A stretch of DNA of 64,000 nucleotides. Origin: a virus (lineage: Duplodnaviria; Caudoviricetes). Shown here one piece after another: positions 5,918 through 35,145 of this stretch (within the stretch, counting starts at the first letter, position 1; the number at the start of each line of letters is the position of its first letter). Where the stretch lies: positions 64,001-128,000 of the IMG/VR virus record IMGVR_UViG_3300005326_000040, one strand, 5' to 3'. Under the pieces are notes generated by a model that saw nothing but the letters and a program-made list of their open reading frames with translations, had not been told where the DNA came from and made no database searches. The translations under genes were made by a program, and so were the position numbers.

Positions 5918-6017
5918 GCGCAGTGACCATATATTGCACTATATCGTCACTCGGTCTGCGGTGTCGTGTAGCGTAGCGTAGGCCAGCGCAGTGACCATAT
6001 ATTGCACTATATGGTCA
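5918..6017. repeat. Two copies of a 27-nt palindrome-forming element
   Basis: GCGCAGTGACCATATATTGCACTATAT at 5918-5944 and 5986-6012; second copy folds TGACCATATA-ttgcac-TATATGGTCA. Confidence 0.85.
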
Positions 6018-6040
6018 AACCGCCTAACCCTGCCGTTACC

Positions 6041-6068
6041 TTTTGCGCGACGCTTCCCATGGTATCAT
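6041..6068 (+). promoter_or_regulatory. Possible extended -10 promoter for the rightward unit
   Basis: TG-G-TATCAT at 6060-6068; -35 weak. Confidence 0.4.
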
Positions 6069-6074
6069 TAAAGT

Positions 6075-6345
6075 ATAAGGTAATGGTTCGGGGGATAATC
6101 CCCTTCCGAAACCTTATGGTTCCCCGATGTTTCCCCTAACGTTATCCAGGGGTTACTAGTGGGTTCTCCGGGCGTTCTAGAGCGCTGGCAATAAACCAGT
6201 AAGGAACCGATCTGCCCCTAGTTAGGGGTTATTAGGGTTCCGAGAACAACCTAACGGCGCAAAGCCTGGGGAATCTAACGGTAACCTTTGGGCAATCAAA
6301 GGGAAACCAAAAGCCTGACCCAGCAGGATAACTGGGATTCCACGG
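6075..6345 (+). ncRNA. Structured leader / ncRNA candidate, homologous to 10070-10340
   Basis: Four co-linear shared motifs and several hairpins (see findings). Confidence 0.55.
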
Positions 6346-6353
6346 AGTTTACA

Positions 6354-7055
6354 ATGTCGTTCGCCAAGTCGTTCGCCGCTCGCGTTCTCTCCGCTGCTTC
6401 CGCTCAGCAGACCGCTCCGGCTCCGCAGGTTGCTCCGGTTGCCCAGGCCGCTCCGGCAATTCCGGGAACCGCTGCTCCGGTCATCCCTGGAATGGCGCCT
6501 TCGGTTCCGGTGGCGCCCCAGGCCACCGTCACGCTGGAAGCCATCAGGGCGGTCGTTGCGTCGGCTTACCCGACGCTCAACGCCGGACAGCACGACGCCA
6601 TCACCACCAACATCGCTCGGCTGACCGGGTTGCCGGTCACCGGGGCTCCGCCGAAGAACCTCGGCGGCTACGCCGCCGCAGCGGCGTTCGTCCTCAAGTC
6701 CATCCCTGGCGGGCTGGAGTTGCTCCAGGCCCAGGAGAAGAAGGGGTTGGGAAAGCGCGTGACCGACTTCCACACGGGCGTCACCGTCTGGAAGCAGGCT
6801 GATGTGCTTCGCCACGATGCTGAGACTGGGCTGGTCGTGCAGGGAAAGGAAGGGAACGCCTATCGGTCGGTGACCTTCACCGATGGCAGGGACAAGTCTG
6901 GGCAAACGCTGCGCAAGGCTCTCGTGAGTGCCCTGGCTCCCAAGGGAGCCGTCGAGACGTTGTTGGCGGCTCTGTGCCTCGCCCGGTCGTTTGGCATCAC
7001 CGATGAGATGATCCAGGAACTCGTCACCCGCAGCGCCGCCATCATGTCCAAGTAG
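6354..7055 (+). CDS. Ala/Pro-rich N-terminus protein, paralog of 46750-47583
   Basis: ATG 6354 after GGAG; EAIRAVVASAYPTL vs EAIATVVKATYPTL; strongly GC-biased codons. Confidence 0.85.
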   Translation: MSFAKSFAARVLSAASAQQTAPAPQVAPVAQAAPAIPGTAAPVIPGMAPSVPVAPQATVTLEAIRAVVASAYPTLNAGQHDAITTNIARLTGLPVTGAPPKNLGGYAAAAAFVLKSIPGGLELLQAQEKKGLGKRVTDFHTGVTVWKQADVLRHDAETGLVVQGKEGNAYRSVTFTDGRDKSGQTLRKALVSALAPKGAVETLLAALCLARSFGITDEMIQELVTRSAAIMSK

Positions 7056-7074
7056 TTCCCTTCTACGTACCCAC

Positions 7075-7136
7075 CTATTCGCCCCTGGTACTGACCCTCA
7101 AAGGGTTGGTGCCAGGGGCACCCTTTTACCCGTTAA
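7075..7136 (+). repeat. Intergenic hairpin R0 (divergent family member)
   Basis: GCCCCTGGTACTGACCC / GGGTTGGTGCCAGGGGC stem, then GTTAA. Confidence 0.6.
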
Positions 7137-7255
7137 AGCCCCTGTAGTTCAAGGGGTTTTAACCACTACCCCTGCGGGGGATTGGAGGGACGACTCAAGG
7201 TGAGTCATGCTCCCTCATTGGGATTCAATAGGGTGTAAACCCGCAGGAGATTACC

Positions 7256-7903
7256 ATGAATAGTTCGATTACCCGCAAGGCTTTCATCGCGATGCTCAAT
7301 ACGTTCGTTCGTCAGATGGAAGGCGTCATTGACGCCTGGAACGCCATTGAACGGATGAACCATATCTGCGCCGACGTTGAGGCGCAGATCTTCAGCAACA
7401 ATAGTGACCGCTACCACGACGGTAGCGTGACCACAACTGATTACAACATCCTTCTGCGAGGGCAGAAGGTGGGGTACGTTCGGGTGCGGGAAACTCACGA
7501 ATATCGGGAGGAAAGGGAGGTCTTTGTCTCCTTCACCGAGCTTTCCCCTCGCGAATGGCGGGAGCGGAAGGCTTCACAGCGGGCTGCGGCCCGCCGTCAT
7601 CAGGAGGCGTACGACGCCTCCCGTGAAGTCGTCGCTGCCGCCCTGGCGGCGGGGCAGTCCGTCCGTGTCCAAGATGGACAGAAAGGGGGGGTTTTCGTGA
7701 TTGGCGACCACAGGGTCGCCGCTGTGCGGCTTCTCACCTCGGCGTATTTCGGTTTCTCTGAGGAAGAGGCGAATCGTCGCCTCGGGGAGGCTTGGTACAA
7801 GGGTAGTGACAGTTGGGGGGGATTCACATTCACCCTCAACCCCGAGTTGGCACATCGCCAGTTCGGTCGTCCTACCAGCATCGAATGGGAGATGACGGCC
7901 TGA
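7256..7903 (+). CDS. Hypothetical protein (215 aa)
   Basis: GCAGGAG-attacc-ATG start. Confidence 0.85.
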   Translation: MNSSITRKAFIAMLNTFVRQMEGVIDAWNAIERMNHICADVEAQIFSNNSDRYHDGSVTTTDYNILLRGQKVGYVRVRETHEYREEREVFVSFTELSPREWRERKASQRAAARRHQEAYDASREVVAAALAAGQSVRVQDGQKGGVFVIGDHRVAAVRLLTSAYFGFSEEEANRRLGEAWYKGSDSWGGFTFTLNPELAHRQFGRPTSIEWEMTA

Positions 7904-7919
7904 GGGCCTCTTTCCCAGT

Positions 7920-7980
7920 CGCCGATGTTTGCCCCTTTCTCAGCCTTCGGCTGGGGGAGGGGCGTTCTTTCGGCGGTTAA
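7920..7980 (+). repeat. Intergenic hairpin R1
   Basis: CGCCGA-tgttt-GCCCCT...cagccTTCggctg...AGGGGC-gttctt-TCGGCG-GTTAA. Confidence 0.9.
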
Positions 7981-8105
7981 AAGCAACCGCCTCTGAGGGG
8001 CGGTATACAAGTACCCTGACGTGAACGAAGGCTTTCCCTACCTTTGGTGAATACCCTATGGGGTAAAGGGGAGACGGTAACATTATCCCACCGACAAGCG
8101 GATAT

Positions 8106-8173
8106 GTAGCACAATGTGGAACCTAATGAGTTATTGGCATTAGGGATGGGTTCGATTCCCATATGTGCTGCCG
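8106..8173 (+). ncRNA. D-armless tRNA-like RNA
   Basis: GTAGCACA/TGTGCTGC acceptor, CCTAATG/CATTAGG arm with 9-nt loop, ATGGG-TTCGATT-CCCAT T-arm; no CCA. Confidence 0.5.
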
Positions 8174-8256
8174 AGTGAAGATAATTCTTTCATTCGATTG
8201 TGGAGCATTCACAAGTAACAGGGTGTGAGTGGATTGAATCTCCAATCCAACTCTAA

Positions 8257-8363
8257 CTGGGTTTAGCTCAAGGGTAGAGCAACTTATGTTTCAAGGTCCT
8301 TCCTAACCAGCGGGACACCGAAACATAGGGATATATCGAGTTCAAGTCTCGATAGCCCAGCCA
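8257..8363 (+). ncRNA. tRNA-like RNA with a greatly enlarged anticodon arm, ends CCA
   Basis: CTGGGTT/AGCCCAG-CCA acceptor, GCTC-AAGGGTA-GAGC D-arm, ATCGAG-TTCAAGT-CTCGAT T-arm; 10-bp stem CTTATGTTTC/GAAACATAGG enclosing 27 nt. Confidence 0.75.
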
Positions 8364-8479
8364 AGTTAGTTGTCCTTTTCCTCTTCGGGGGATTAGCCCA
8401 TAGGGACGTGGGCACACCAGCCGTTATGTGGACGGTTGGAATGATTGTTGGGGTAATCCCCGTTGAAGGAGAATGAATC

Positions 8480-8755
8480 ATGGCACGTCGTAATGCTGCT
8501 CGTCGGGCTCGCAATTCAAAGAGGTCTGCCCTCGTGACTGCCGCTATTCAGATGGCTTGCAATGCGGGCTCCGGGCTTCAACTCTTCGTCGGAGCCTCCG
8601 TCGAGGAGTGTGAGCATGATTACGCGAAGAGCCTCGGTGCGGAAGCTGCAAGGCTCCGCTCGGGGCTCTTGGGATACGGGCTCAATATGGCGGCATTCCG
8701 CCATGAACCGCCCGTCGTTCAAGACTACGTGAGGAACTACATCCTCCTCGCATAG
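8480..8755 (+). CDS. Hypothetical protein
   Basis: AAGGAG SD; followed by hairpin R2. Confidence 0.8.
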   Translation: MARRNAARRARNSKRSALVTAAIQMACNAGSGLQLFVGASVEECEHDYAKSLGAEAARLRSGLLGYGLNMAAFRHEPPVVQDYVRNYILLA

Positions 8756-8760
8756 TTTTG

Positions 8761-8823
8761 CCGCCGACGTTTGCCCCTGTATCGGCCTTCGGGCCGGTAT
8801 GGGGGCGTTCTTTCGGCGGTTAA
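8761..8823 (+). repeat. Intergenic hairpin R2
   Basis: CCGCCGA...GCCCC...ggccTTCGggcc...GGGGC-gttctt-TCGGCGG-TTAA. Confidence 0.9.
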
Positions 8824-8867
8824 CAAGCTCCAGTGGGGTAACCAGTCCCCCATGAAAGGATATTACC

Positions 8868-9086
8868 ATGTACAAGTCCAATTCATTCGGCTCTCTCGGC
8901 GCGTCCCTTGGCGTGGCGAAGGTGCGGGAGCTTTCCCGCGCACTTCATGTCGCCGACTCCCGCCGTGAGGCGGCGAATGTGCAGAAGCTCATCGAGGCGA
9001 AAGCCTCTGAGATGCGTCGTTCGCTGAAGAATCCCGAGAGCTATGCTCTCGTGATCAATGCCCTCAAGAAGGAGGGCAAGCTGTAG
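8868..9086 (+). CDS. Small basic hypothetical protein
   Basis: AAAGGA-tattacc-ATG. Confidence 0.8.
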   Translation: MYKSNSFGSLGASLGVAKVRELSRALHVADSRREAANVQKLIEAKASEMRRSLKNPESYALVINALKKEGKL

Positions 9087-9095
9087 AGCGGGATT

Positions 9096-9158
9096 CCGCC
9101 GATGTTTGCCCCTGCTTTGGCCTTCGGGCCATTGTGGGGGCGTTCTTTCGGCGGTTAA
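9096..9158 (+). repeat. Intergenic hairpin R3
   Basis: Same consensus. Confidence 0.9.
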
Positions 9159-9170
9159 AGGAGGCGCAAT

Positions 9171-9458
9171 ATGAGTGCGCTCGAACGCAAGAAGGCCGCG
9201 AAGCTGGAAGCGCGGCGAAAGAAGTGTATTCTCTACGAGACAGCCAAGAAGGTTGTCTATAGCGCTGGCACTAAACAGGTGTCAGCAATGGTAAGCCGTC
9301 CGATGGCTTGCCCTCACTCGGACTTCACATACGACTTGTGGGAAGTCGTTGTTTTCAACAGCGACAATTCCACCTGTCGTGCCAGTTGCTATCTTCCAAA
9401 GGAGGAGGCTCTTGCTCTTGCTCGTAATTGGGCAATTGAGTTTGGAGCCATTCTTTGA
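9171..9458 (+). CDS. Hypothetical protein
   Basis: AAGGAGG SD directly after R3. Confidence 0.8.
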   Translation: MSALERKKAAKLEARRKKCILYETAKKVVYSAGTKQVSAMVSRPMACPHSDFTYDLWEVVVFNSDNSTCRASCYLPKEEALALARNWAIEFGAIL

Positions 9459-9461
9459 TAC

Positions 9462-9525
9462 CCGCCGATGTTCGCCCCTTTCTCAGCCATTCTGGCTGGG
9501 GGAGGGGCCTTCTATCGGCGGTTAA
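9462..9525 (+). repeat. Intergenic hairpin R4
   Basis: Same consensus with compensatory changes. Confidence 0.9.
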
Positions 9526-9528
9526 GAA

Positions 9529-9666
9529 TGCCAGATATCGTCCCCACTTCCTTTTCCCGCAAGGATTAGGGGGTCAAGTTGAAGAAGGACAAACCGGGAT
9601 GAACAATCCTGGAGGGACGGAGAGCTTTCGAGTTCTCAGGTGGTTCAATTCCATCATCTGGCACCA
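9529..9666 (+). ncRNA. 138-nt tRNA-like RNA: 8-bp acceptor, T-arm and CCA with a large inserted domain
   Basis: TGCCAGAT/ATCTGGCA-CCA; GGTGG-TTCAATT-CCATC; GAGAGC/GTTCTC hairpin; CGTCCC/GGGACG enclosing about 70 nt with sub-hairpins. Confidence 0.7.
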
Positions 9667-9762
9667 AAGCAAGTGTGTATCTTTAGGAGTTTGGGATTGT
9701 TTTTGCTCCGGAGTTCGGGAGCAAAGCATAATCATTCTCCTAAAGAACACAAAGGAGGAGAG

Positions 9763-9999
9763 ATGCTGACGAAAACGAATGCAAGAAGGTTGGTGGAGAT
9801 TGTTGCGCAGATAAAAGACTTGTCTGCCAAGAACGGCATGATCGATCAACGCCACGAAGATGTGGCGAAGATTCTGGGGACGTATAAGGAGGATGAATAT
9901 CCTTCTGAAGAAGACCCCGAGTGGCGCAAGAACAACGACGAGATTGGCAATCTCTACAACGAGCTTCTGTCCATCATCAACACAAGTCTCCCCCTGTAG
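9763..9999 (+). CDS. Hypothetical protein
   Basis: AAGGAGG SD, ATG 9763. Confidence 0.75.
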   Translation: MLTKTNARRLVEIVAQIKDLSAKNGMIDQRHEDVAKILGTYKEDEYPSEEDPEWRKNNDEIGNLYNELLSIINTSLPL

Positions 10000-10005
10000 A
10001 GACTT

Positions 10006-10067
10006 CCGCCGATTACCCGCCCCTTTTCAGCCTTCGGGCTGAGGAGGGGCGCCCTTTCGGCGGTTAA
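10006..10067 (+). repeat. Intergenic hairpin R5
   Basis: Same consensus. Confidence 0.9.
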
Positions 10068-10069
10068 AA

Positions 10070-10340
10070 GCTACACCCTATCCCAAGTATGTTCTCGTTC
10101 TCTCCATTATGGTATGGTTTTCAGTAGGGGGTAAAACATAAACCCCTTCTGGAAACTCTACCTCAACAATTCCCGATGTTTCTTTGTGTAGGGTTGTTGC
10201 CTACACGAGAGATAAAAGGATAGTTGATAGTATGACCCCCACCAAAGGGTCATTTATTAATGGGTAGAGGGTGAGAACAAACCTGGAGTGGAATTATCGA
10301 ATCGCCTGATAGGCGGCCTGGGGGCGGAACAACAACTCGG
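10070..10340 (+). ncRNA. Structured intergenic RNA, homologous to 6075-6345
   Basis: Shared co-linear motifs; GTGTAGG/CCTACAC and TGACCC/GGGTCA hairpins. Confidence 0.55.
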
Positions 10341-10343
10341 AGA

Positions 10344-10886
10344 ATGATCATGAAGACGACTTCCAAGATGAACGCGCTTCTGAATGCGGCCTGTGACCAT
10401 GCGAAGGCGCGTGGTCGTTTCCCCATGTACTTGGACCCGGTTAGGTTCGAGTTTGACGGGGACAGTGACTGTTACTTCGCCGCAAGAGCGAGGGACTTCA
10501 CGTTCTCCAAAGGGGCCGCAGCGATCATTGGTGCCGACATGATCGTCACCATGTTCGCGGGGGAGGAGCAGTGGGGAATGTTCTTCTCTACTCGTGAGTT
10601 GCTTGACCCCGAAACGCTCAAGTGGCTCAAGGATTCCGACCACTTGTTGGAAGACGAGTGGAAAGCAGCGGAGTCCTTGGCGAAGAAGGCCGAGCAACTC
10701 GCCTCTCAGGCGCGAGTTTCGGCCTTGAAGGCTCGTGAAGCGAGCCTCAGTGCCAACGACTTCCAGGTGGTCATGGTGGAGATTGAGCGAAAGCCCATCT
10801 TCGCCGCGCTGCCTGAGACAGTGGAAGTTCATCCCGTCTTCAGTCAGATCAACCGAGAGGTTGATTTCGATTGCAACTGGGATTGA
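10344..10886 (+). CDS. Hypothetical protein
   Basis: GGAG SD, GC-biased codons. Confidence 0.85.
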   Translation: MIMKTTSKMNALLNAACDHAKARGRFPMYLDPVRFEFDGDSDCYFAARARDFTFSKGAAAIIGADMIVTMFAGEEQWGMFFSTRELLDPETLKWLKDSDHLLEDEWKAAESLAKKAEQLASQARVSALKAREASLSANDFQVVMVEIERKPIFAALPETVEVHPVFSQINREVDFDCNWD

Positions 10887-10896
10887 ACCTGTTTCT

Positions 10897-10961
10897 CCGC
10901 CGATTGTTTGCCCCTGCTTTCGCCTTTCGAGGCGATTGAGGGGCATTCTTTCGGCGGTTAA
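10897..10961 (+). repeat. Intergenic hairpin R6
   Basis: Same consensus. Confidence 0.9.
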
Positions 10962-10983
10962 CAAGCAACCACTGGAGGCTGCT

Positions 10984-11232
10984 ATGAAGAAGCTGTGGTT
11001 TTGGGTGCATAGTGCGCCCACGGGGTTCGTCAAGGATGCTGATCGTCATGTTGTTGTGATGGCGATTGCTACCGAGGACGAGATTTATGGCCCTGGTATC
11101 GGTCTCGACAACTGGCACGAGACTGGTATCGAGGGCACTCTTGATGGTTGCCTCGCGACCCTCAAGAAGAATCATCCATGCGTCAACATGGAGACAATCC
11201 TCGGCGGCTGTTTGGGTTACGCCGTCGAATAA
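10984..11232 (+). CDS. Hypothetical protein
   Basis: GGAGG SD, ATG 10984. Confidence 0.75.
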   Translation: MKKLWFWVHSAPTGFVKDADRHVVVMAIATEDEIYGPGIGLDNWHETGIEGTLDGCLATLKKNHPCVNMETILGGCLGYAVE

Positions 11233-11234
11233 TA

Positions 11235-11545
11235 GTGGCTGATAAGTTGCTATCAAGAAAGGGCAGGAACGTATAGGAGTAACAATCCTAGTTCGAGTCT
11301 CCCCATAGGAAAGATAGGGCAAAGCCCACGTTGGACAATCTTTCCGCAGGTTTAGGCGAGCCAACCTATGGATGACTATAAACGGTTATAAGGCTCAGGG
11401 TCCAATGTTACTAGGTTAGGAAGGAGACCCAATGTAACGATAGCGGGTCTGGAGACAACTGAATAGCCCACCCTTCGGCAAGGTGGGCAATCTTAAGGGT
11501 ATGACTATTATGGTTGTATCCTTAAGATTGCCCAATTAGCCCCAA
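11235..11545 (+). ncRNA. About 310-nt structured intergenic RNA candidate with a pseudoknot
   Basis: CCATAGG/CCTATGG and GTTGG/CCAAC helices; crossing GTTAC/GTAAC and AGACCC/GGGTCT; 14-bp perfect inverted repeat 11485-11498/11520-11533. Confidence 0.55.
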
Positions 11546-11568
11546 CATATACCTGAGAGGAAAGAGTC

Positions 11569-11925
11569 ATGATCAAGGTGTGTTTCAACGAAGTGCCTGC
11601 CAATGTGGCGCAGTTCGTGGCGAAGAACATCCAGTCGGCGCAAATCGTGCGAGCGGCACGACCGGCGCCGATTGCGGCAGGAATGAAGCATTCGCCCAAT
11701 GTCATTGGAGGACGCCGTTACGGCAAGTACTCCAGGGGCGATAAGAACCGTAACCTCCGTAAGTCGGTGACGACCTATGGAGGACACACCTTCAAAGAGT
11801 TGATGGTGTTGATGGGCAACTCCGTGCCGATCAGCCAACTTCTCGCCATGAAGGAGACGAGGGAGTATTACGTCGGTGTTCGTCACGAATCGTGGAAGAA
11901 GTTCCGCGACCATCAGTGGAGGTAG
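11569..11925 (+). CDS. Basic hypothetical protein
   Basis: GAGG SD. Confidence 0.8.
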   Translation: MIKVCFNEVPANVAQFVAKNIQSAQIVRAARPAPIAAGMKHSPNVIGGRRYGKYSRGDKNRNLRKSVTTYGGHTFKELMVLMGNSVPISQLLAMKETREYYVGVRHESWKKFRDHQWR

Positions 11926-11929
11926 TTCG

Positions 11930-12106
11930 ATGGAAAGGTATCAGTGGGAAGCCTTGGCGGAGACGTTGTTGATGCTCTCTCGTGCTCAGACCATGAGCGG
12001 TTTGAATTACGAACGGGTTCGACAGTTCGTCCGTGGAGAGAGGCCGCTGTCGCGGCGAATTCGCCGGTCGATCAACATCCTCTCCAGAACCGTATTCGAT
12101 AAGTAG
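11930..12106 (+). CDS. Small Arg-rich protein
   Basis: GGAGG SD, ATG 11930. Confidence 0.7.
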   Translation: MERYQWEALAETLLMLSRAQTMSGLNYERVRQFVRGERPLSRRIRRSINILSRTVFDK

Positions 12107-12167
12107 TTCTGTTCGCCCCTGCTTTGGCCCTTCGGGGCCATTGTGGGGGCGATTCATTGGCAGTTAA
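12107..12167 (+). repeat. Intergenic hairpin R7
   Basis: TTCGCCCCT...ggcccTTCGgggcc...GGGGGCGA...GTTAA; outer stem decayed. Confidence 0.8.
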
Positions 12168-12178
12168 GGAGAGGTCCA

Positions 12179-12346
12179 ATGGAGAAGCTTCTTCAAGTGA
12201 TGAGGTCGAGGAAGTGCTCCTATACGGAGTACATTGAATTGAGGCTCGCCGTATTGGCCGACATCGGCAAGGGCGGCGACGAACTGGTAGCAAAAATCTT
12301 TCGGGGGTTGGGGATTCCGATTCCTGTGGACCCTCGTTACAACTAG
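12179..12346 (+). CDS. Small hypothetical protein
   Basis: AAGGAG SD after R7. Confidence 0.7.
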   Translation: MEKLLQVMRSRKCSYTEYIELRLAVLADIGKGGDELVAKIFRGLGIPIPVDPRYN

Positions 12347-12378
12347 GGTTCCTTCTCGCCGAAAGAAAGGAACACGTC

Positions 12379-12678
12379 ATGCTCTTTGAAGTGCGACCGC
12401 CGAATTCAATGAAGAACGTCATGGTGACGTTTGAATCGAGTACTCGGCGGGAAACAGCTGCCGCAAATGCTGCTGTTGAATCAGTTCTCAAAGATGAGGA
12501 CTTGCAGCCTTTTCATCAGATGGGCTGTGACCCTTTCTACGGGAACGACGCTCCCGGCATTCATGGTTGGGAAATCTGGGTTGACGGGGAGAACATTGCG
12601 CGGGTGGCGGCGCTTCTTCCAAAGATCCAGACCATCTACGAGAAGGAGTATATCCTTCGGGACTGGATGGAGGATTGA
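12379..12678 (+). CDS. Hypothetical protein
   Basis: AAGGA SD. Confidence 0.8.
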   Translation: MLFEVRPPNSMKNVMVTFESSTRRETAAANAAVESVLKDEDLQPFHQMGCDPFYGNDAPGIHGWEIWVDGENIARVAALLPKIQTIYEKEYILRDWMED

Positions 12679-12710
12679 ATTGGCAGGTTCGATTCCTATC
12701 CGTTCGGCCA
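12663..12710 (+). ncRNA. Possible tRNA minihelix or 3' tRNA remnant
   Basis: GCAGG-TTCGATT-CCTAT (one mismatch) then CCGTTCGG-CCA; weak GU-rich partner CTGGATGG overlaps the upstream gene end. Confidence 0.3.
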
Positions 12711-12726
12711 AGGAAGGAGATGAATC

Positions 12727-13038
12727 ATGAAGGTTCGTATGATGATTCTGGTTGATGGACAGTATCGTTGGGTCGATAGCAAATTCAAAAGCAGCTTGGA
12801 AGCTGCTCAGGAGGTGAGTATTCCCTATATCGCTGGTGCATCTCGTGGTGAGGAGGGGTGCATCGAAGTCACTGGCAACAAGGTGACTTTCGTCGGCTAT
12901 CCCGTCAACGTTCTTATCAGTGAGGATGAGAACCCGATCACCATGGTCATGTCTGTGAGGGAGCAGAACATGGTCAAGGAGTCGTATCCTTGCACGCCCG
13001 AAGAAGTCAACGAGATGAGGGCCGCCAACAAGGAATAA
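12727..13038 (+). CDS. Hypothetical protein, paralog of 22215-22526
   Basis: LVDG..RWVDS.F...GEEGCIEV.G..V.F..(Y/F)P. Confidence 0.85.
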   Translation: MKVRMMILVDGQYRWVDSKFKSSLEAAQEVSIPYIAGASRGEEGCIEVTGNKVTFVGYPVNVLISEDENPITMVMSVREQNMVKESYPCTPEEVNEMRAANKE

Positions 13039-13042
13039 CCGT

Positions 13043-13204
13043 ATGGAGCAATACGTTCACGACTTCGGCATCATCTGGCAAGTGATGTGTAAGACCTACA
13101 TTGCCCACATTCTTTTTGTGTGGGTGATGGTGGTGTTCACAGTTGAGAAGTGGCAGGAGTATCAGGAGGCCAGGGTGATGGTTCTCCGAAAGCTCCATAA
13201 GTAA
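13043..13204 (+). CDS. Small membrane protein (53 aa, not in track)
   Basis: MEQYVHDFGIIWQVMCKTYIAHILFVWVMVVFTVEKW...; AAGGA SD. Confidence 0.65.
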   Translation: MEQYVHDFGIIWQVMCKTYIAHILFVWVMVVFTVEKWQEYQEARVMVLRKLHK

Positions 13205-13217
13205 GGGAGAAGAGAGA

Positions 13218-13520
13218 ATGAAGAAGGTTGTGTTCGCATTCATCCTCGCCGCTATCGTTAGTGGTTGTGCCAAACCGGAGCCGAAGGTTCCTGTTGTTTC
13301 CCAGCAGCCCCAAGTGGCGCGGGTCATCTATACCGAGAAGGATTCTCCTCTCGACTATACAATCCGCGCCGAACAGGCTGTGATCGAAGGGGGTAGGACG
13401 GCGAAGCAGGCTGCCAGTCAGGCATATGATTGGGCAGCAAAGGAAGCGGAGGAGTTGGCCGACAAGGCGCGACGCGCCAAGAAGGCGGCCAAGGAAAAGA
13501 TTCACGAGATGACGGAGTGA
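13218..13520 (+). CDS. Predicted lipoprotein
   Basis: MKKVVFAFILAAIVSGC lipobox. Confidence 0.8.
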   Translation: MKKVVFAFILAAIVSGCAKPEPKVPVVSQQPQVARVIYTEKDSPLDYTIRAEQAVIEGGRTAKQAASQAYDWAAKEAEELADKARRAKKAAKEKIHEMTE

Positions 13521-13534
13521 CGTAGTGACGTAGT

Positions 13535-13597
13535 GGATGGTGTTCGCCCGTTATTCGGCTATAGAGCCGGGTGACGGGCGATGCTGTTTTCTTTTAA
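13535..13597 (+). repeat. Intergenic hairpin R8 (subfamily B), possibly terminator-like
   Basis: TCGCCCGTTA-TTCGGCT-atag-AGCCGGG-TGACGGGCGA-tgctgttttcttTTAA. Confidence 0.85.
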
Positions 13598-13624
13598 CGA
13601 GAGCCTTTCCCAAGGAGAAGTAAG

Positions 13625-13801
13625 ATGAGCAAGAACGAACTGATCGCGTTGGGGCTGGAAGCGCATGAAGTCGATTACATCGCCGAAGCGGTCGCCAAGA
13701 ATGGCGAAGTACTCGGCGACATCGTGCATGTGGACTTCTGCGTCAGCCCCAGGAGCGTTGGCGTGGAAACGGTGAATGAGGCGTACGACCTGGGACTGTG
13801 A
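13625..13801 (+). CDS. Small hypothetical protein (58 aa, not in track)
   Basis: AAGGAG SD; MSKNELIALGLEAHEVDYIAEAV... Confidence 0.7.
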   Translation: MSKNELIALGLEAHEVDYIAEAVAKNGEVLGDIVHVDFCVSPRSVGVETVNEAYDLGL

Positions 13802-13809
13802 GGTTCGTC

Positions 13810-14784
13810 ATGGGGTTAAATGAAGTCATCAATGGGCTGAAGCAGGGCAAGTCCTTCGAAAGGGCAGGGACGAGCACTGGTGGTGGGAAATATGTGGAAA
13901 AACTGATTGCTGTGAGTGCAATCTACTTCAAGCATCAGATCGTTGGCGCCATGAGTGGTCATGGTTGGGGAGGGTCGAGCCAGTTGGAGATCAATATCCT
14001 CAACAACGGTCGCTGGGACGAAGATGGATGGAAGGAGATTGCACCAGCCAGAGGTGAACAGTCATAAGTGGAGCAAACGATGACAACGATTATCGTTAAC
14101 ATATCGGATGACCTTTCCCTTGCAGATCGTGCCTACACGGTGGACGATTTGCAATTCTTGCTGAGTGATGCCTTGCGGTCTCACGGGATTGGCTGTCACC
14201 TTACGGTGCTCCCAACCGAGACAGACGAGCAACGGATCATTCAGATCATCCAAGAAAGCAAAAGTGTTTTGCACGCCATCAAAAGCGTACGAAGCACTTT
14301 TGGGTTTGATCTGCTCACCTCCAAGAGAATCGTGGAAGACCTTATCGCCAAAGGTACAACTGTGGGCGGGAAGTTGTAGAGGGAGGACACCATGCCAGCA
14401 GTGAGTCGTAAAGAAATCGATCATGAGCGTGAAGTTGACGCTCAACTCAAAACGGACCTTTGTAACCTTGCATGGTACGGGTCCGACAATCCTGAGGTTG
14501 TCAAACGAGCGGAGGCCAAGGAACGTGAGTGGAGCGAGAAGCACTATCGCTCTTTCATGGACGACCAGTTGGAGAGTCTTCGTTGTACTCTGCACAAAGA
14601 GATGATGGAAGACTTGTTGGATGACGATTTGGAAGCCTGTCAAGACAGGAGGGCAACTTCCAGGGACATCAGCGATGACCCTTACGACGCTCTGGACTTC
14701 CACGAGCCTTCGCCGTATGTCGAACAGGAGCCGGACTACGAGTCGGCGGCCGAAGAGTTCGCAGATTACGACGAGTACGATTGA
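13810..14784 (+). other. Three hypothetical CDSs
   Basis: 13810-14067, 14068-14379, 14392-14784 (acidic C-terminus). Confidence 0.75.
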
Positions 14785-14795
14785 AGGGAGGAGAT

Positions 14796-15233
14796 ATGAT
14801 TCACATCTATACAAGCACTGTGGTTCCTCTCGCCACGGTGGAGAATCACGTCGGCTATATGGCTGACCTTAATCTGCTTGAAGACTACAGGTTGGTTCAT
14901 CTCGATCACACTGCTCCGCACAACTTTCAGGCGGAAGAAGCGGAGAAGGTGATTGAGAAGCACAAGGCCAAGCCGCGCTTCATCTACGCGGTTGCTTGTG
15001 TGATGGAACCGGCGATTCTCCGGATTCTTCGGAGGGTCAGGGAGGGCAAGCTTTCCCACGAAGATGTCAAGGTTTTCGTTCTCTCATACGACGCCAACGA
15101 AAAGGAGGAAGTTTGCGAGTGTCGAGTGGATGGCGATGGGGACTTCATTGACTCCTGGCCTGATGGGTTTTTCGAGGCATGTTCCAAAGAGTTGTTTGCG
15201 GAAGGGGATACTGATGGCACCACGAACGCCTGA
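14796..15233 (+). CDS. Stand-alone DUF3696-like protein (C-terminal module of ABC/AAA ATPases)
   Basis: AILRILRRVREGKLSHEDVKVF...CRVDGDGDFIDSWPDGFFE matches the recalled DUF3696 pattern; no Walker A. Confidence 0.6.
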   Translation: MIHIYTSTVVPLATVENHVGYMADLNLLEDYRLVHLDHTAPHNFQAEEAEKVIEKHKAKPRFIYAVACVMEPAILRILRRVREGKLSHEDVKVFVLSYDANEKEEVCECRVDGDGDFIDSWPDGFFEACSKELFAEGDTDGTTNA

Positions 15234-15855
15234 GAGCAATCGTAGGCCGCCGACGATTAGTGACAAGCAGTTGGTCAATCGTCGCATCCGAGTGGTCTAT
15301 CGGCGCCGCAGCATTGACTCCTATCACAACATCATCTATCACGATGATATCGAATGTGAGGGGGTTCTTCGGCTCAATCCTTCGGGATATGGGTTGACGG
15401 TGTTGACGGATGACGGTCGGTCGGTTGGGTACTTCCGCGCCGACTGTCCACTCCAACGCGACGAACCGATGCCCAGTGATTTCTCCCACATGAAGGGATA
15501 CGATGGGCACGCTGATTTGAGCTATGAGTTGACGCCGGTATCCGACGAAGTGATTCCGGTGGCGACACCGGAGAACGTCGGGGAACCGGCGAAGTCTCCG
15601 GTGATGTATTACCGAAGTGAGGCTCAAGGCGTTCTCAGGAACGACCTGAACAACACAGTCGTTGGTACGATGGAATCGTATCGAGTATGGGTCGTCACCC
15701 AGAATCAGTGGCTGGAGGTCACTGAAACAATTATGAAGATGTTGTATGGGTCGGAGAGTAATCTTCGGCGCTGGCATCCTCAGGGTGAAAAGGTTTCAAC
15801 GTTCTACGATCACTTCGAAAGGAACTTCCCTGGGGTATCCCTGGGACTTGCGTGA
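15214..15855 (+). CDS. Hypothetical protein
   Basis: ATG 15214 after AAGGGG. Confidence 0.8.
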   Translation: MAPRTPESNRRPPTISDKQLVNRRIRVVYRRRSIDSYHNIIYHDDIECEGVLRLNPSGYGLTVLTDDGRSVGYFRADCPLQRDEPMPSDFSHMKGYDGHADLSYELTPVSDEVIPVATPENVGEPAKSPVMYYRSEAQGVLRNDLNNTVVGTMESYRVWVVTQNQWLEVTETIMKMLYGSESNLRRWHPQGEKVSTFYDHFERNFPGVSLGLA

Positions 15856-15914
15856 GGGGTTGGTCGCCCGGTATCGTTCTTGGAACGGTATCGGGCGATG
15901 CTGTTTTTATTTAA
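15856..15914 (+). repeat. Intergenic hairpin R9 (subfamily B)
   Basis: TCGCCCGGTATCGTTC-ttg-GAACGGTATCGGGCGA-tgctgtttttatTTAA. Confidence 0.85.
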
Positions 15915-15933
15915 CGATACCAGGAGGATTACC

Positions 15934-16200
15934 ATGTGCATGTCGATTGACGACAAGGTTCCCTTCAAGTGGACGCCGCACGAGCAGGCTTCCCACGTTA
16001 TCATTGGATACTGTGCCAAGTGTGGAAGTGGCGGTATCATGATGACGGCGAAGAACGAACTGGAAGCCTACAGGATGAGGAAGTGGTATCGAGCCCACGG
16101 TTATCCGAAGGCTCGAATCGAACTGGACAATGAGGAGACCTCCAAGCAGGTTTCGGATGAGTTGACGGACCTCATCTGTTGGGAAGACTCTCACGTCTGA
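15934..16200 (+). CDS. Hypothetical protein with CxxC
   Basis: CAGGAGG-attacc-ATG. Confidence 0.75.
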   Translation: MCMSIDDKVPFKWTPHEQASHVIIGYCAKCGSGGIMMTAKNELEAYRMRKWYRAHGYPKARIELDNEETSKQVSDELTDLICWEDSHV

Positions 16201-16245
16201 GTCGGGATAACGCCGCAAAGAAATCCTTTTCAAAGGGAGAGAGTT

Positions 16246-16779
16246 ATGAACCAGAGCAACATGATTGCCATGGCTACGAGCCCTTCATCGTTCGACATGT
16301 TCAAGTTGACGGAGATTCTCGTCAACTGCGGAGGGACGATCTTCGGTGGGTTCGTGAGGGACATGGTGGCTGGGCAGTTGGACTTCGTGAGCGACATCGA
16401 CGTGAGTATGCGTCAGGAGTTCAAGCTCCAGTATCTCATGGCAAGGCTTATCAAAGAATACCAGCAAGTGCTGGTGTCGGCCTTGCCTGTGAAGAATTAC
16501 GGGAGAGGGAACCCCGACGGGTTCCGGTTGACTGTGGACGGTATTGATGTTGATATCGTTTGCGAGGCCGATCGAGGAATCCTTGACCTCGACGTGAATG
16601 GGCTCCTGTGGGACAATAATGGGTTGAGGTTGGATATCAGCCGATATCGTGTCAACGGGGACACCTTCGTTCAGTTGGTTCAACGGATTCAGCAGAAGCA
16701 GTTCCGTCGAATCGACGTTCCGCTGTGGCGGGAGAGGAAGGTGGCGAAGCTGAAGTCGATGGGGTGGACGGAAGTGTGA
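16246..16779 (+). CDS. Nucleotidyltransferase, tRNA-nucleotidyltransferase/poly(A) polymerase head domain only
   Basis: GGTIFGGFVRDM...SDIDV...DVDIV...DLDVNGL; 177 aa, lacks body/tail. Confidence 0.75.
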   Translation: MNQSNMIAMATSPSSFDMFKLTEILVNCGGTIFGGFVRDMVAGQLDFVSDIDVSMRQEFKLQYLMARLIKEYQQVLVSALPVKNYGRGNPDGFRLTVDGIDVDIVCEADRGILDLDVNGLLWDNNGLRLDISRYRVNGDTFVQLVQRIQQKQFRRIDVPLWRERKVAKLKSMGWTEV

Positions 16780-16785
16780 GGGTAG

Positions 16786-16848
16786 GGATGGTGTTCGCCC
16801 GTTATTCGGCTATAGAGCCGAGTGACGGGCGATGCTGTTTTCTTTTAA
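16786..16848 (+). repeat. Intergenic hairpin R10, near-identical to R8
   Basis: One substitution relative to 13535-13597. Confidence 0.9.
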
Positions 16849-16876
16849 TGAGGGCGTCATTGAAAGGACAAGAAGA

Positions 16877-17476
16877 ATGATCAAGACAATCAACAGCAAC
16901 ATCGTCAAGTGCTTCGACAGCTTCTGCGTTGGGACCAAGATCAAGAATGTCGAAGCGTTCTTGAGGCTGTTGGAAGCAGCCATCGAGAGTTTCGATTGGT
17001 CGTCCTGTAAGGCACCAGGGCAAGCCAAGATTCCGATGTCCACCGAAGCGTGTCAGCACGTTTACTCGGGGATTGGTTTGAAGACAGAGAACCCCAACGA
17101 TTACGTGATTCGTCAGTGGCGTGGTTCGGTAGCGATGTATCTCAAGAGGGAGCACGCCATTGCTTGTGATTCAGTGAAGGTCATTGTGTATACGAAGCAG
17201 GCGTATCTCGATGACCCGGATTGCAAGGGGAATCCTGAGAAGGGAATTATCGGGGACGAAGAGGAATACAATCGGGTAAGTCAGTCCGATTGTACACACG
17301 TTCTGATAGCGGTTCAGGCGGACGCTGGTCCGGAGAGTCCAGTTGCACCGGGGCGGTTCGTAGCGAACCTAGCCGGTGCGAACAATGAGTACGAGGCCAA
17401 AACCGCCGAGCAGCTTCAACAATTGGCGAGAGAGATTCGCGACTACTATGCGACGTATATGGTGGTTGCGGACTGA
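16877..17476 (+). CDS. Hypothetical protein (weak recalled resemblance to DUF3228)
   Basis: AAAGGA SD; VIVYTKQ...ESPVAPGRFVANLAG; CDS is solid, family call is weak. Confidence 0.7.
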   Translation: MIKTINSNIVKCFDSFCVGTKIKNVEAFLRLLEAAIESFDWSSCKAPGQAKIPMSTEACQHVYSGIGLKTENPNDYVIRQWRGSVAMYLKREHAIACDSVKVIVYTKQAYLDDPDCKGNPEKGIIGDEEEYNRVSQSDCTHVLIAVQADAGPESPVAPGRFVANLAGANNEYEAKTAEQLQQLAREIRDYYATYMVVAD

Positions 17477-17552
17477 CAAGTAACTTCTCGTTGGTTGTTT
17501 GAAGGGTAATTACCGGGAGATAATGTAATGAAGATTGGAATCTGAGCAGTAA

Positions 17553-17640
17553 GGCCCGCTGGTGGAAATGGTGAGACACACAGGATTTAAAATCCTGCGG
17601 CCGAAAGGTCATAAGGGTTCGACTCCCTTGCGGGCTACCA
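17553..17640 (+). tRNA. trnL: tRNA-Leu, anticodon TAA
   Basis: GGCCCGC/GCGGGCT acceptor, CAGGA-TTTAAAA-TCCTG anticodon arm, long variable arm, AAGGG-TTCGACT-CCCTT, ACCA end. Confidence 0.95.
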
Positions 17641-17660
17641 ATGGTTTGAAGGAGGTTTTT

Positions 17661-18017
17661 ATGGGGCGAAAGAAGAAGACGAAGGCTGATTACGAGGAGC
17701 TACCGTTTAGACTGGGTAATTCTAGACGCCTTCAAGTAGATGGAGTAGTAAAGAAGATGGCGCCTGGAAGATTGGACGAATGGAGGTGGGACCAATATGG
17801 TCGGTCGATAAAGGGGTTGGAATATTTTAACTTGCTTCATCAGGTTTGGGGTAGGATTGAAAGAATAACTCCAGTCCTTCACGTAGTCTACATATTCAAA
17901 GATGAAGTTACGTGGGGACGGCGAGAGTGTTGGGTAAAGCTGAAGAATGGTAAGATGGTAGAGTGGTCGAAGAAGGCGATAAGCTGGAAAGAATATCGCG
18001 AGACGCAGTATCGGTAG
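17661..18017 (+). CDS. Basic Trp-rich hypothetical protein
   Basis: AAGGAGG SD, ATG 17661. Confidence 0.8.
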   Translation: MGRKKKTKADYEELPFRLGNSRRLQVDGVVKKMAPGRLDEWRWDQYGRSIKGLEYFNLLHQVWGRIERITPVLHVVYIFKDEVTWGRRECWVKLKNGKMVEWSKKAISWKEYRETQYR

Positions 18018-28047: not shown

Positions 28048-28139
28048 GTCCGTTCCCGTGATTATACGGGGCCGGACATAAGCAAACGAGCTAGGAAGCT
28101 AGTAAGACCTGAAAACGGTTTGAATCGTTTGCTTATGTC
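28048..28139. other. Intergenic structured element with a perfect 15-bp inverted repeat
   Basis: GACATAAGCAAACGA 28075-28089 / TCGTTTGCTTATGTC 28125-28139, plus an upstream GTCCG/CGGAC hairpin. Confidence 0.75.
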
Positions 28140-34994: not shown

Positions 34995-35009
34995 GACATT
35001 TCACACGAG

Positions 35010-35063
35010 CTTCACTAAATGCTTTGGCTTGACCCATGGGTCAAGTTGGGGTATTTAGTGAAG
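35010..35063. other. Long hairpin with a palindromic core
   Basis: CTTCACTAAATGC/GTATTTAGTGAAG enclosing CTTGACCCATGGGTCAAG. Confidence 0.75.
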
Positions 35064-35074
35064 TCCTACCAACA

Positions 35075-35145
35075 AGACGAAAAGCTCCGGTGAGCCTGTG
35101 ACCTTTCGGTCATGGAGGGTGGTTCAACTCCACCTTCGTCTGCCA
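35075..35145 (+). ncRNA. Anticodon-less tRNA-like RNA 4 (loop TTTC, end G-CCA)
   Basis: AGACGAA/TTCGTCT; GCTC-CGGT-GAGC; TGTGACC-TTTC-GGTCATG; GGTGG-TTCAACT-CCACC. Confidence 0.9.

Follow-up and report, generated by a model that had tools for sequence, protein, structure and literature searches.

The locus studied is a gap of 336 nt (11233-11568) between two plus-strand orphan genes of the GC-rich early gene array of an uncultured jumbo phage belonging to the Caudoviricetes. The phage is represented by a single 338,055-bp IMG/VR virus record, IMGVR_UViG_3300005326_000040, with a CheckV completeness of 97%. The window, i.e. the whole 64,000-nt stretch analysed, comprises bases 64001-128000 of this record, and positions are those of the window unless given as genome positions. 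A run of small plus-strand genes, which contains the gap, begins near position 6000, at which point the G+C content rises in a sharp step from about 0.43 to 0.61, accompanied by a change of sign in the GC skew. The resulting array (window 6000-28000, genome 70-92 kb) is compositionally distinct from the genome at about 0.40 G+C, its own G+C content being 0.51-0.61 at 6000-17000 and declining slowly to about 0.45 by 28000. All of its genes are on the plus strand and closely spaced, and almost every junction carries an RNA module (hairpins of a repeated family, tRNA look-alikes or long leaders). The G+C content of the gap is 0.46-0.50, compared to 0.52-0.58 in the flanking genes. The features of the locus are as follows.

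10984-11232, plus strand: upstream gene, 82 aa, orphan, with the double stop TAA TAG at its end (open reading frame and codon log-odds)
11232-11253, plus strand: stop-codon hairpin of 9 bp (three G·U pairs, GAUA loop; pair probability 0.97, -7.2 kcal/mol)
11254-11465, plus strand: spacer with short, individually unremarkable helices and no coding signal, tRNA shape or paralog
11420-11437, plus strand: start-stop mini-ORF, consisting of the Shine-Dalgarno sequence AAGGAG, 5 nt and ATG TAA (sequence scan)
11425-11450, plus strand: hairpin AGACCC/GGGUCU with AUG-UAA in its loop, one stem of a claimed pseudoknot (pair probability 0.97, -9.0 kcal/mol)
11466-11488, plus strand: G+C-rich 7-bp hairpin GCCCACC/GGUGGGC with a CUUCGG-containing loop (-12.2 kcal/mol), overlapping the long hairpin by 5 nt
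11484-11534, plus strand: long hairpin of 24 uninterrupted bp, 15 perfect pairs followed by 9 (four of them G·U), with a UAU loop (pair probability 0.98)
11555-11568, plus strand: ribosome-binding region GAGAGGAAAGAG of the downstream gene, beginning about 20 nt past the long hairpin (sequence and start-codon scan)
11569-11925, plus strand: downstream gene, 118 aa, basic orphan protein (codon-usage gene call)

Coding capacity and family searches

Genes were called with a codon-usage model trained on the array itself. For the upstream gene the model chose a TTG at 10936 as the start; the ATG at 10984 was preferred because a ribosome-binding site is present there. No Pfam or PHROG family was found for any of the three neighbouring proteins, the two flanking ones having been tested to E ≤ 10. 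When the flanking proteins and the product of the next gene upstream were compared with 5.8 billion and 1.84 billion proteins, each retrieved only its own sequence; the single exception, obtained with the 118-aa protein, was a short weak stretch in a 1767-aa protein. Three other contigs, the longest of 13,184 bp, encode proteins identical to the flanking proteins. The structure model of the 118-aa protein is poor (pLDDT 41; Atlas 0.36), residues 75-92 appearing in this unreliable model as two short helices.

The initial annotation had seen no credible open reading frame in the gap, and the coding test agrees with it. The three plus-strand frames are stop-rich, and the codon log-odds are negative in all of them over 11233-11500, compared to +0.2 to +0.45 in the flanking genes. 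The sole stretch that stays open, in frame with the upstream gene, is 39 codons long, comes after the double stop and lacks a start codon. The possibility that an ORF has decayed and left a coding signal behind was considered and rejected, no signal being present in any frame. The gap at 11233-11568 is real and non-coding.

In covariance-model searches with Rfam 15 no family reached its gathering threshold in the gap. With the cut-off relaxed to E ≤ 10, the only Rfam matches were hairpin-shaped look-alikes (mir-549, HIV pol-1 stem loop, C4) at 16-22 bits, compared to thresholds of 45-93, and no aptamer family matched. Nothing supports the ribozyme or the riboswitch that had been suggested for this stretch; the initial annotation was right in regarding it as non-coding and as carrying plus-strand structure at the RNA level, of no described family. 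A tRNA or tmRNA, which should present an acceptor stem and a T arm with a GTTCRANYC loop, usually then CCA, was detected in the gap neither by ARAGORN nor by the Rfam tRNA model. A tRNA remnant around the T-loop-like GTTCGAGTC at 11291 was rejected, since this motif has no flanking stem and ARAGORN at 70-80% thresholds produced forced models only, e.g. one with a 110-nt intron. Also rejected were a paralog elsewhere in the genome, the single 21/22 match being situated within an SbcC-like ORF, and a tandem duplication inside the gap, where internal repeats such as TGGACAATCTT / TGGGCAATCTT lack significance: repeats as good occur in 56-96 of 300 shuffles.

Nothing was retrieved by blastn of 10700-12000 against phage records, by peptide-pattern scans of viral and metagenome contigs with both flanking proteins, or by exact hairpin patterns in viral, prokaryotic genome and metagenome contigs. 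The relatives identified through terminase reach 51-60% identity only; one of them is a long record of 244 kb (IMGVR_UViG_3300028735_000004), and the short ones do not contain the locus.

Sites resembling sigma-70 promoters occur within 6000-18000 at a total count equal to the chance level. The best of them (TTGATA, 16 nt, TATTAT; 10/12) is on the minus strand at 11256-11229 and faces leftwards, antisense to the 3' end of the 82-aa gene.

The 24-bp hairpin

The long hairpin spans 51 nt with a 3-nt loop, starts 252 nt past the upstream stop codon and ends 34 nt before the downstream AUG. The initial annotation had described it as a perfect 14-bp inverted repeat extending through GU pairs into a hairpin of about 49 nt. 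Both the repeat and the extension, with four G·U pairs, are present, but the dimensions require correction: the arms (11484-11498 / 11520-11534) are perfect over 15 bp, and the hairpin measures 51 nt. The repeat is among the two longest inverted repeats of the genome, and about 0.012 perfect repeats of this kind would be expected in 338 kb, as calculated from the genome length and the loop range. Folded alone (11481-11537), the hairpin has a z-score of -9.6.

The strand on which the hairpin acts was deduced from its imperfect pairs. On the plus strand the four non-Watson-Crick pairs, which are located within the upper 9 bp, are without exception G·U; on the minus strand they would be A·C mismatches. 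The chance that all four fall as G·U is 1 in 16 if they arose as transitions from a perfect palindrome, and about 0.0008 if they are random mismatches. The energy is -35.5 kcal/mol on the plus strand compared to -24.6 kcal/mol on the minus strand. The four G·U pairs and this energy difference therefore indicate that the long hairpin acts at the RNA level, on the plus strand. Over the whole genome, the plus strand carries 34 and the minus strand 6 uninterrupted hairpins with stems of at least 14 bp.

The long hairpin at 11484-11534 is the sole feature of the gap that is clearly beyond chance, and it constitutes its one robust element. What the analysis establishes is a real gap without coding sequence and, in it, one robust hairpin at the RNA level, which belongs to a known functional kind and to no known family.

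Some other elements were noted during the survey of the genome. The other 15-bp perfect inverted repeat lies at window 28075-28139, has a 35-nt loop and is unrelated in sequence to 11484-11534. Three further uninterrupted plus-strand hairpins of 21-26 bp occur at window 35009-35064 and at genome 139405-139456 and 147042-147087; they contain 4-7 G·U pairs, and each begins 14-18 nt past a stop codon. Right after the hairpin at 35009, at about 35075-35145, there is a tRNA-shaped element with a 7-bp acceptor stem (AGACGAA/TTCGTCT), a T arm of the composition GGTGG-TTCAACT-CCACC and the end G-CCA, which was called neither by Rfam nor by ARAGORN.

Folding of the spacer

The initial annotation had proposed that the whole stretch is a folded RNA of 310 nt, containing a pseudoknot and competing hairpins. 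Every helix that it listed is present where it had been placed: CCATAGG 11303 / CCTATGG 11365, GTTGG 11330 / CCAAC 11361, GTTAC 11407 / GTAAC 11434, AGACCC 11425 / GGGTCT 11445, and GCCCACC 11466 / GGTGGGC 11482. The proposed stacking of GTTGG/CCAAC on CCATAGG/CCTATGG holds in part: both helices exist, but C11365 is common to them, and the stack consists of either 7+4 or 6+5 pairs. In the Boltzmann ensemble the only listed helices that are favoured are AGACCC/GGGUCU (P 0.97) and the long hairpin (P 0.98); CCAUAGG/CCUAUGG, GUUGG/CCAAC and GCCCACC/GGUGGGC are outcompeted. Other helices predicted in the spacer are UAGGA/UCCUA at 11274-11290 (P 0.95), GGAAAGAU/AUCUUUCC at 11308-11345 and a composite hairpin at 11358-11396 (P about 0.9).

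The whole gap folds on the plus strand with -114.5 kcal/mol and a z-score of -4.0 to -4.4 in two shuffle sets, a value which is due to the long hairpin. When the latter was omitted (11233-11476), the z-score was -1.3 to -1.4, and 23 of 200 shuffles were equally good. The cloverleaf-like segment at 11296-11376 gave -1.2 and the pseudoknot zone at 11376-11462 gave +0.3. The first 68 nt of the gap, in which the stop-codon hairpin is located, gave -3.2, with 1 of 200 shuffles equally good.

For the evaluation of these values a local background was established from fourteen 244-nt coding pieces of the array (window 6400-17143), compared with dinucleotide shuffles. The mean z-score of these pieces was -3.27 (sd 1.27) in the sense and -2.69 in the antisense direction, and that of core genes elsewhere was -0.56. 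The gap minus its hairpin thus folds less well than its coding neighbours, and the whole gap lies within one sd of them. The symmetry between the two strands suggests that the folding background of the array is compositional. We suspect its cause to be the period-3 G+C pattern, which is lost on shuffling, and not RNA structure under selection. In the array, where coding sequence itself reaches about -3, a z-score of -4 is accordingly unremarkable, and this sets a high bar for every claim of structured RNA there. A single 310-nt folded structure is unsupported, the rest of the gap folding below the coding background, and the 250-nt spacer ahead of the long hairpin is without demonstrable structure or function.

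The H-type pseudoknot proposed for the spacer is at the chance level. When perfect helices of 5 bp and 6 bp with a span of up to 80 nt were counted, a crossing pair was found in 94% of the dinucleotide shuffles. Its stem GUUAC/GUAAC contributes a mere -2.5 kcal/mol as a duplex.

As to the competing hairpins, the overlap is real, but it does not form a binary switch: five pairs are disputed (5.8 kcal/mol), and at least 19 bp of the long helix are present in both states. When GCCCACC/GGUGGGC was forced, a 19-bp version of the long hairpin remained stacked on top of it, with -35.0 kcal/mol compared to -40.8 kcal/mol for the unconstrained fold. Stepwise folding of the growing transcript showed that the short hairpin forms first and is displaced only by the last 5 nt of the 3' arm of the long hairpin.

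The mini-ORF in the loop of AGACCC/GGGUCU, with its Shine-Dalgarno sequence, ATG and TAA at 11420-11437, is the sole site of this type on both strands of the 338-kb genome; it was spotted post hoc.

Proposed function of the junction

The array possesses a family of junction hairpins of its own, with seven copies of type A at about 7917-12170 and hairpins of type B at 13544, 15863 and 16795. Family hairpins occupy the junctions at 7904, 8756, 9087, 9459, 10000, 10887 and 12107. Each is made up of two stems with 23 pairs in total and begins 1-15 nt past a stop codon; at the four junctions without an intervening RNA module, about 10-45 nt separate the end of the match to the family model from the following start codon, compared to 34 nt between the long hairpin and its AUG. 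The covariance model (R1) was built from the seven A copies and comprises an outer clamp, an inner G+C stem and a GGTTAA end. It recovers these copies at 54-88 bits, and weaker plus-strand matches were obtained at 13538-13600, 16783-16851 and 7073-7139. The upper stems vary among the copies with the pairing apparently kept, as judged from the alignment and the RNAalifold consensus structure. A 16-mer of the family gave 17 matches in viral sequences, all of them attributable to chance and without a hairpin.

Membership of the long hairpin in this family was rejected, since the model had no match in 11233-11568, even at E ≤ 10. The two types share the array and the strand, have helices of nearly equal length (23 compared to 24 bp) and form the last element before a ribosome-binding site. 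They differ in that the gap has neither the CCGCCGA/TCGGCGG clamp nor the GGTTAA end, is A+U-richer, and carries a hairpin which does not abut the stop codon. A helix unrelated in sequence and of the same length can thus fill the same junction slot, which points to recognition by helix length and not by sequence, as by a double-strand-specific nuclease.

It is therefore tempting to regard the element as a junction hairpin that serves as a substrate of a host dsRNA-specific nuclease or engages it in some other way, whereby messages would be split and their new ends stabilised; we give this reading preference with a little less than even confidence. The gap would represent an untranslated junction within a long plus-strand polycistronic early transcript, and its functional core would be the 24-bp hairpin at 11484-11534, corresponding to two helical turns. 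Host RNase III or an equivalent enzyme might cut this hairpin and so separate the upstream message, with a tail of 250 nt, from the downstream cistron. The stem stubs left behind would protect the new ends, and the short leader would keep the ribosome-binding site free. The long hairpin at the 11233-11568 junction may in this way do the job that the repeated hairpins do at neighbouring junctions.

RNase III of Escherichia coli needs about two turns of double helix. The hairpin, located between two same-strand genes of the dense plus-strand array, offers 24 uninterrupted pairs (P 0.98), compared to the helix of at least about 20 bp, or two turns, that defines such a substrate. No RNase III is encoded in the phage genome, and the host enzyme would therefore serve. 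The two-turn helix, the precedent of phage T7 (see below) and the lack of a phage RNase III are the reasons for which the nuclease reading is favoured. Several observations speak against it. The distance from the stop codon to the hairpin is 252 nt, compared to 1-15 nt for the family hairpins, and the spacer is left unexplained; the three other hairpins of 21-26 bp in the genome lie 14-18 nt past stop codons, as hairpins of 3' ends do; no homolog of the gap was found in which the hairpin might be conserved or covary; and cleavage of a fully paired stem would affect both strands, in contrast to the T7 sites, which have internal loops and are cut once.

The main rival reading, which has a real although minor chance of being correct, takes the long hairpin for a 3'-end element, which would either terminate transcription by an unknown polymerase or block 3' exonucleases. 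The stretch 11233-11534 would then either form the 3' UTR of the upstream gene or constitute an independent RNA, about 300 nt long, with the hairpin at its end. The three hairpins of 21-26 bp just past stop codons argue for this possibility, as does the fact that the spacer precedes the hairpin rather than trailing it. As in Rho-independent terminators, a strong stem-loop closes a non-coding stretch. The hairpin differs from them in having a stem far longer than usual and no U tract, the bases next to it being AAUUAGCCCC, and in being absent from the terminator scan. The sequence after the long stem (AAUUAGCC) and that after the short one (AAUCUUAAGG) are not those of an intrinsic terminator, and neither stem has an entry in the scan. 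Moreover, the next ribosome-binding site follows about 20 nt past the stem, and the downstream gene would need a promoter of its own, of which none was seen.

It appears rather unlikely that a gene or RNA module was lost here and has decayed completely into the spacer, the hairpin alone being under selection, if anything is. The size of the gap, close to that of one gene plus a junction in the array, would fit such an origin, as would its G+C content of 0.46-0.50, below the 0.52-0.58 of the flanking genes, and weak internal repeats such as TGGACAATCTT / TGGGCAATCTT. Against it stand the lack of leftover coding signal in any frame, the frequency of equally good repeats in shuffles (56-96 of 300) and the lack of a paralog in the genome.

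The discrete structured RNA of the initial annotation, in which the whole gap would be a switch, a ribozyme or a new ncRNA built from the pseudoknot at 11407-11450 and the alternative 3' hairpins, is considered improbable. The gap is non-coding and the array is rich in odd RNA modules; helices of 7-8 bp are modestly enriched, with 7 seeds outside the hairpin compared to 3.5 expected; GGAAAGAU (11308) and the ribosome site GGAAAGA (11559) are alternative pairing partners of UCUUUCC (11339); and the only SD-AUG-UAA site of the genome is placed in a hairpin loop. The gap shares with H-type pseudoknots and riboswitch platforms the strand order at 11407-11450, the alternative partners of UCUUUCC and the overlapping 3' hairpins. 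Unlike in those systems, its versions are at the chance level or energetically trivial, and they match no aptamer family. The z-score of -1.3 to -1.4 for 11233-11476 compares with a flanking coding mean of -3.3, the pseudoknot zone is at +0.3 with crossing helices in 94% of the shuffles, Rfam gave no match, the competing hairpins dispute 5 bp only, and no homologs were found in which covariation could be examined.

A related and distinctly improbable proposal is that the gap is a new cis-acting leader RNA of the RNA-punctuated early array. A ribosome parked on SD-AUG-UAA (11420-11437), together with the pairing of UCUUUCC (11339) with 11308 or 11559, would set the translation of the downstream gene, and the 24-bp hairpin would insulate or time the choice.

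That the palindrome acts as DNA, as an operator, another protein-binding site or a recombination site, possibly for the downstream product, is highly improbable: the gene for a small basic protein does follow directly after the perfect 15-bp arms, and residues 75-92 of this protein, modelled as two short helices, had suggested a possible helix-turn-helix, but the arms are 21 bp apart, the inner nine positions pair only by virtue of G·U on the plus strand, which is meaningless for duplex DNA, and the protein, with no helix-turn-helix family match at E ≤ 10 and a model pLDDT of 41, was rejected as a helix-turn-helix protein having the palindrome as its operator.

To return to the favoured nuclease reading, taken alone the long hairpin adds a further example to a type of intercistronic hairpin that has been known since T7. 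The sites of T7 contain an internal loop and are cut once, and the fully paired stem found here predicts a double cut, as at lambda sib. The likeness to the T7 sites R0.3 to R1.3 lies in the occurrence of stable hairpins of about two turns between cistrons, a short distance ahead of the following ribosome-binding site, in a long early transcript, which in the present phage is a presumed one; the differences are that there is no sequence similarity and that 252 nt separate the long hairpin from the stop codon before it. In T7, host RNase III cleaves the early precursor at five hairpins between cistrons while transcription is in progress (PMC4858673). A reliance on the host enzyme (PMC4858673) would be a further point of similarity, the phage described here being likewise without an RNase III of its own.
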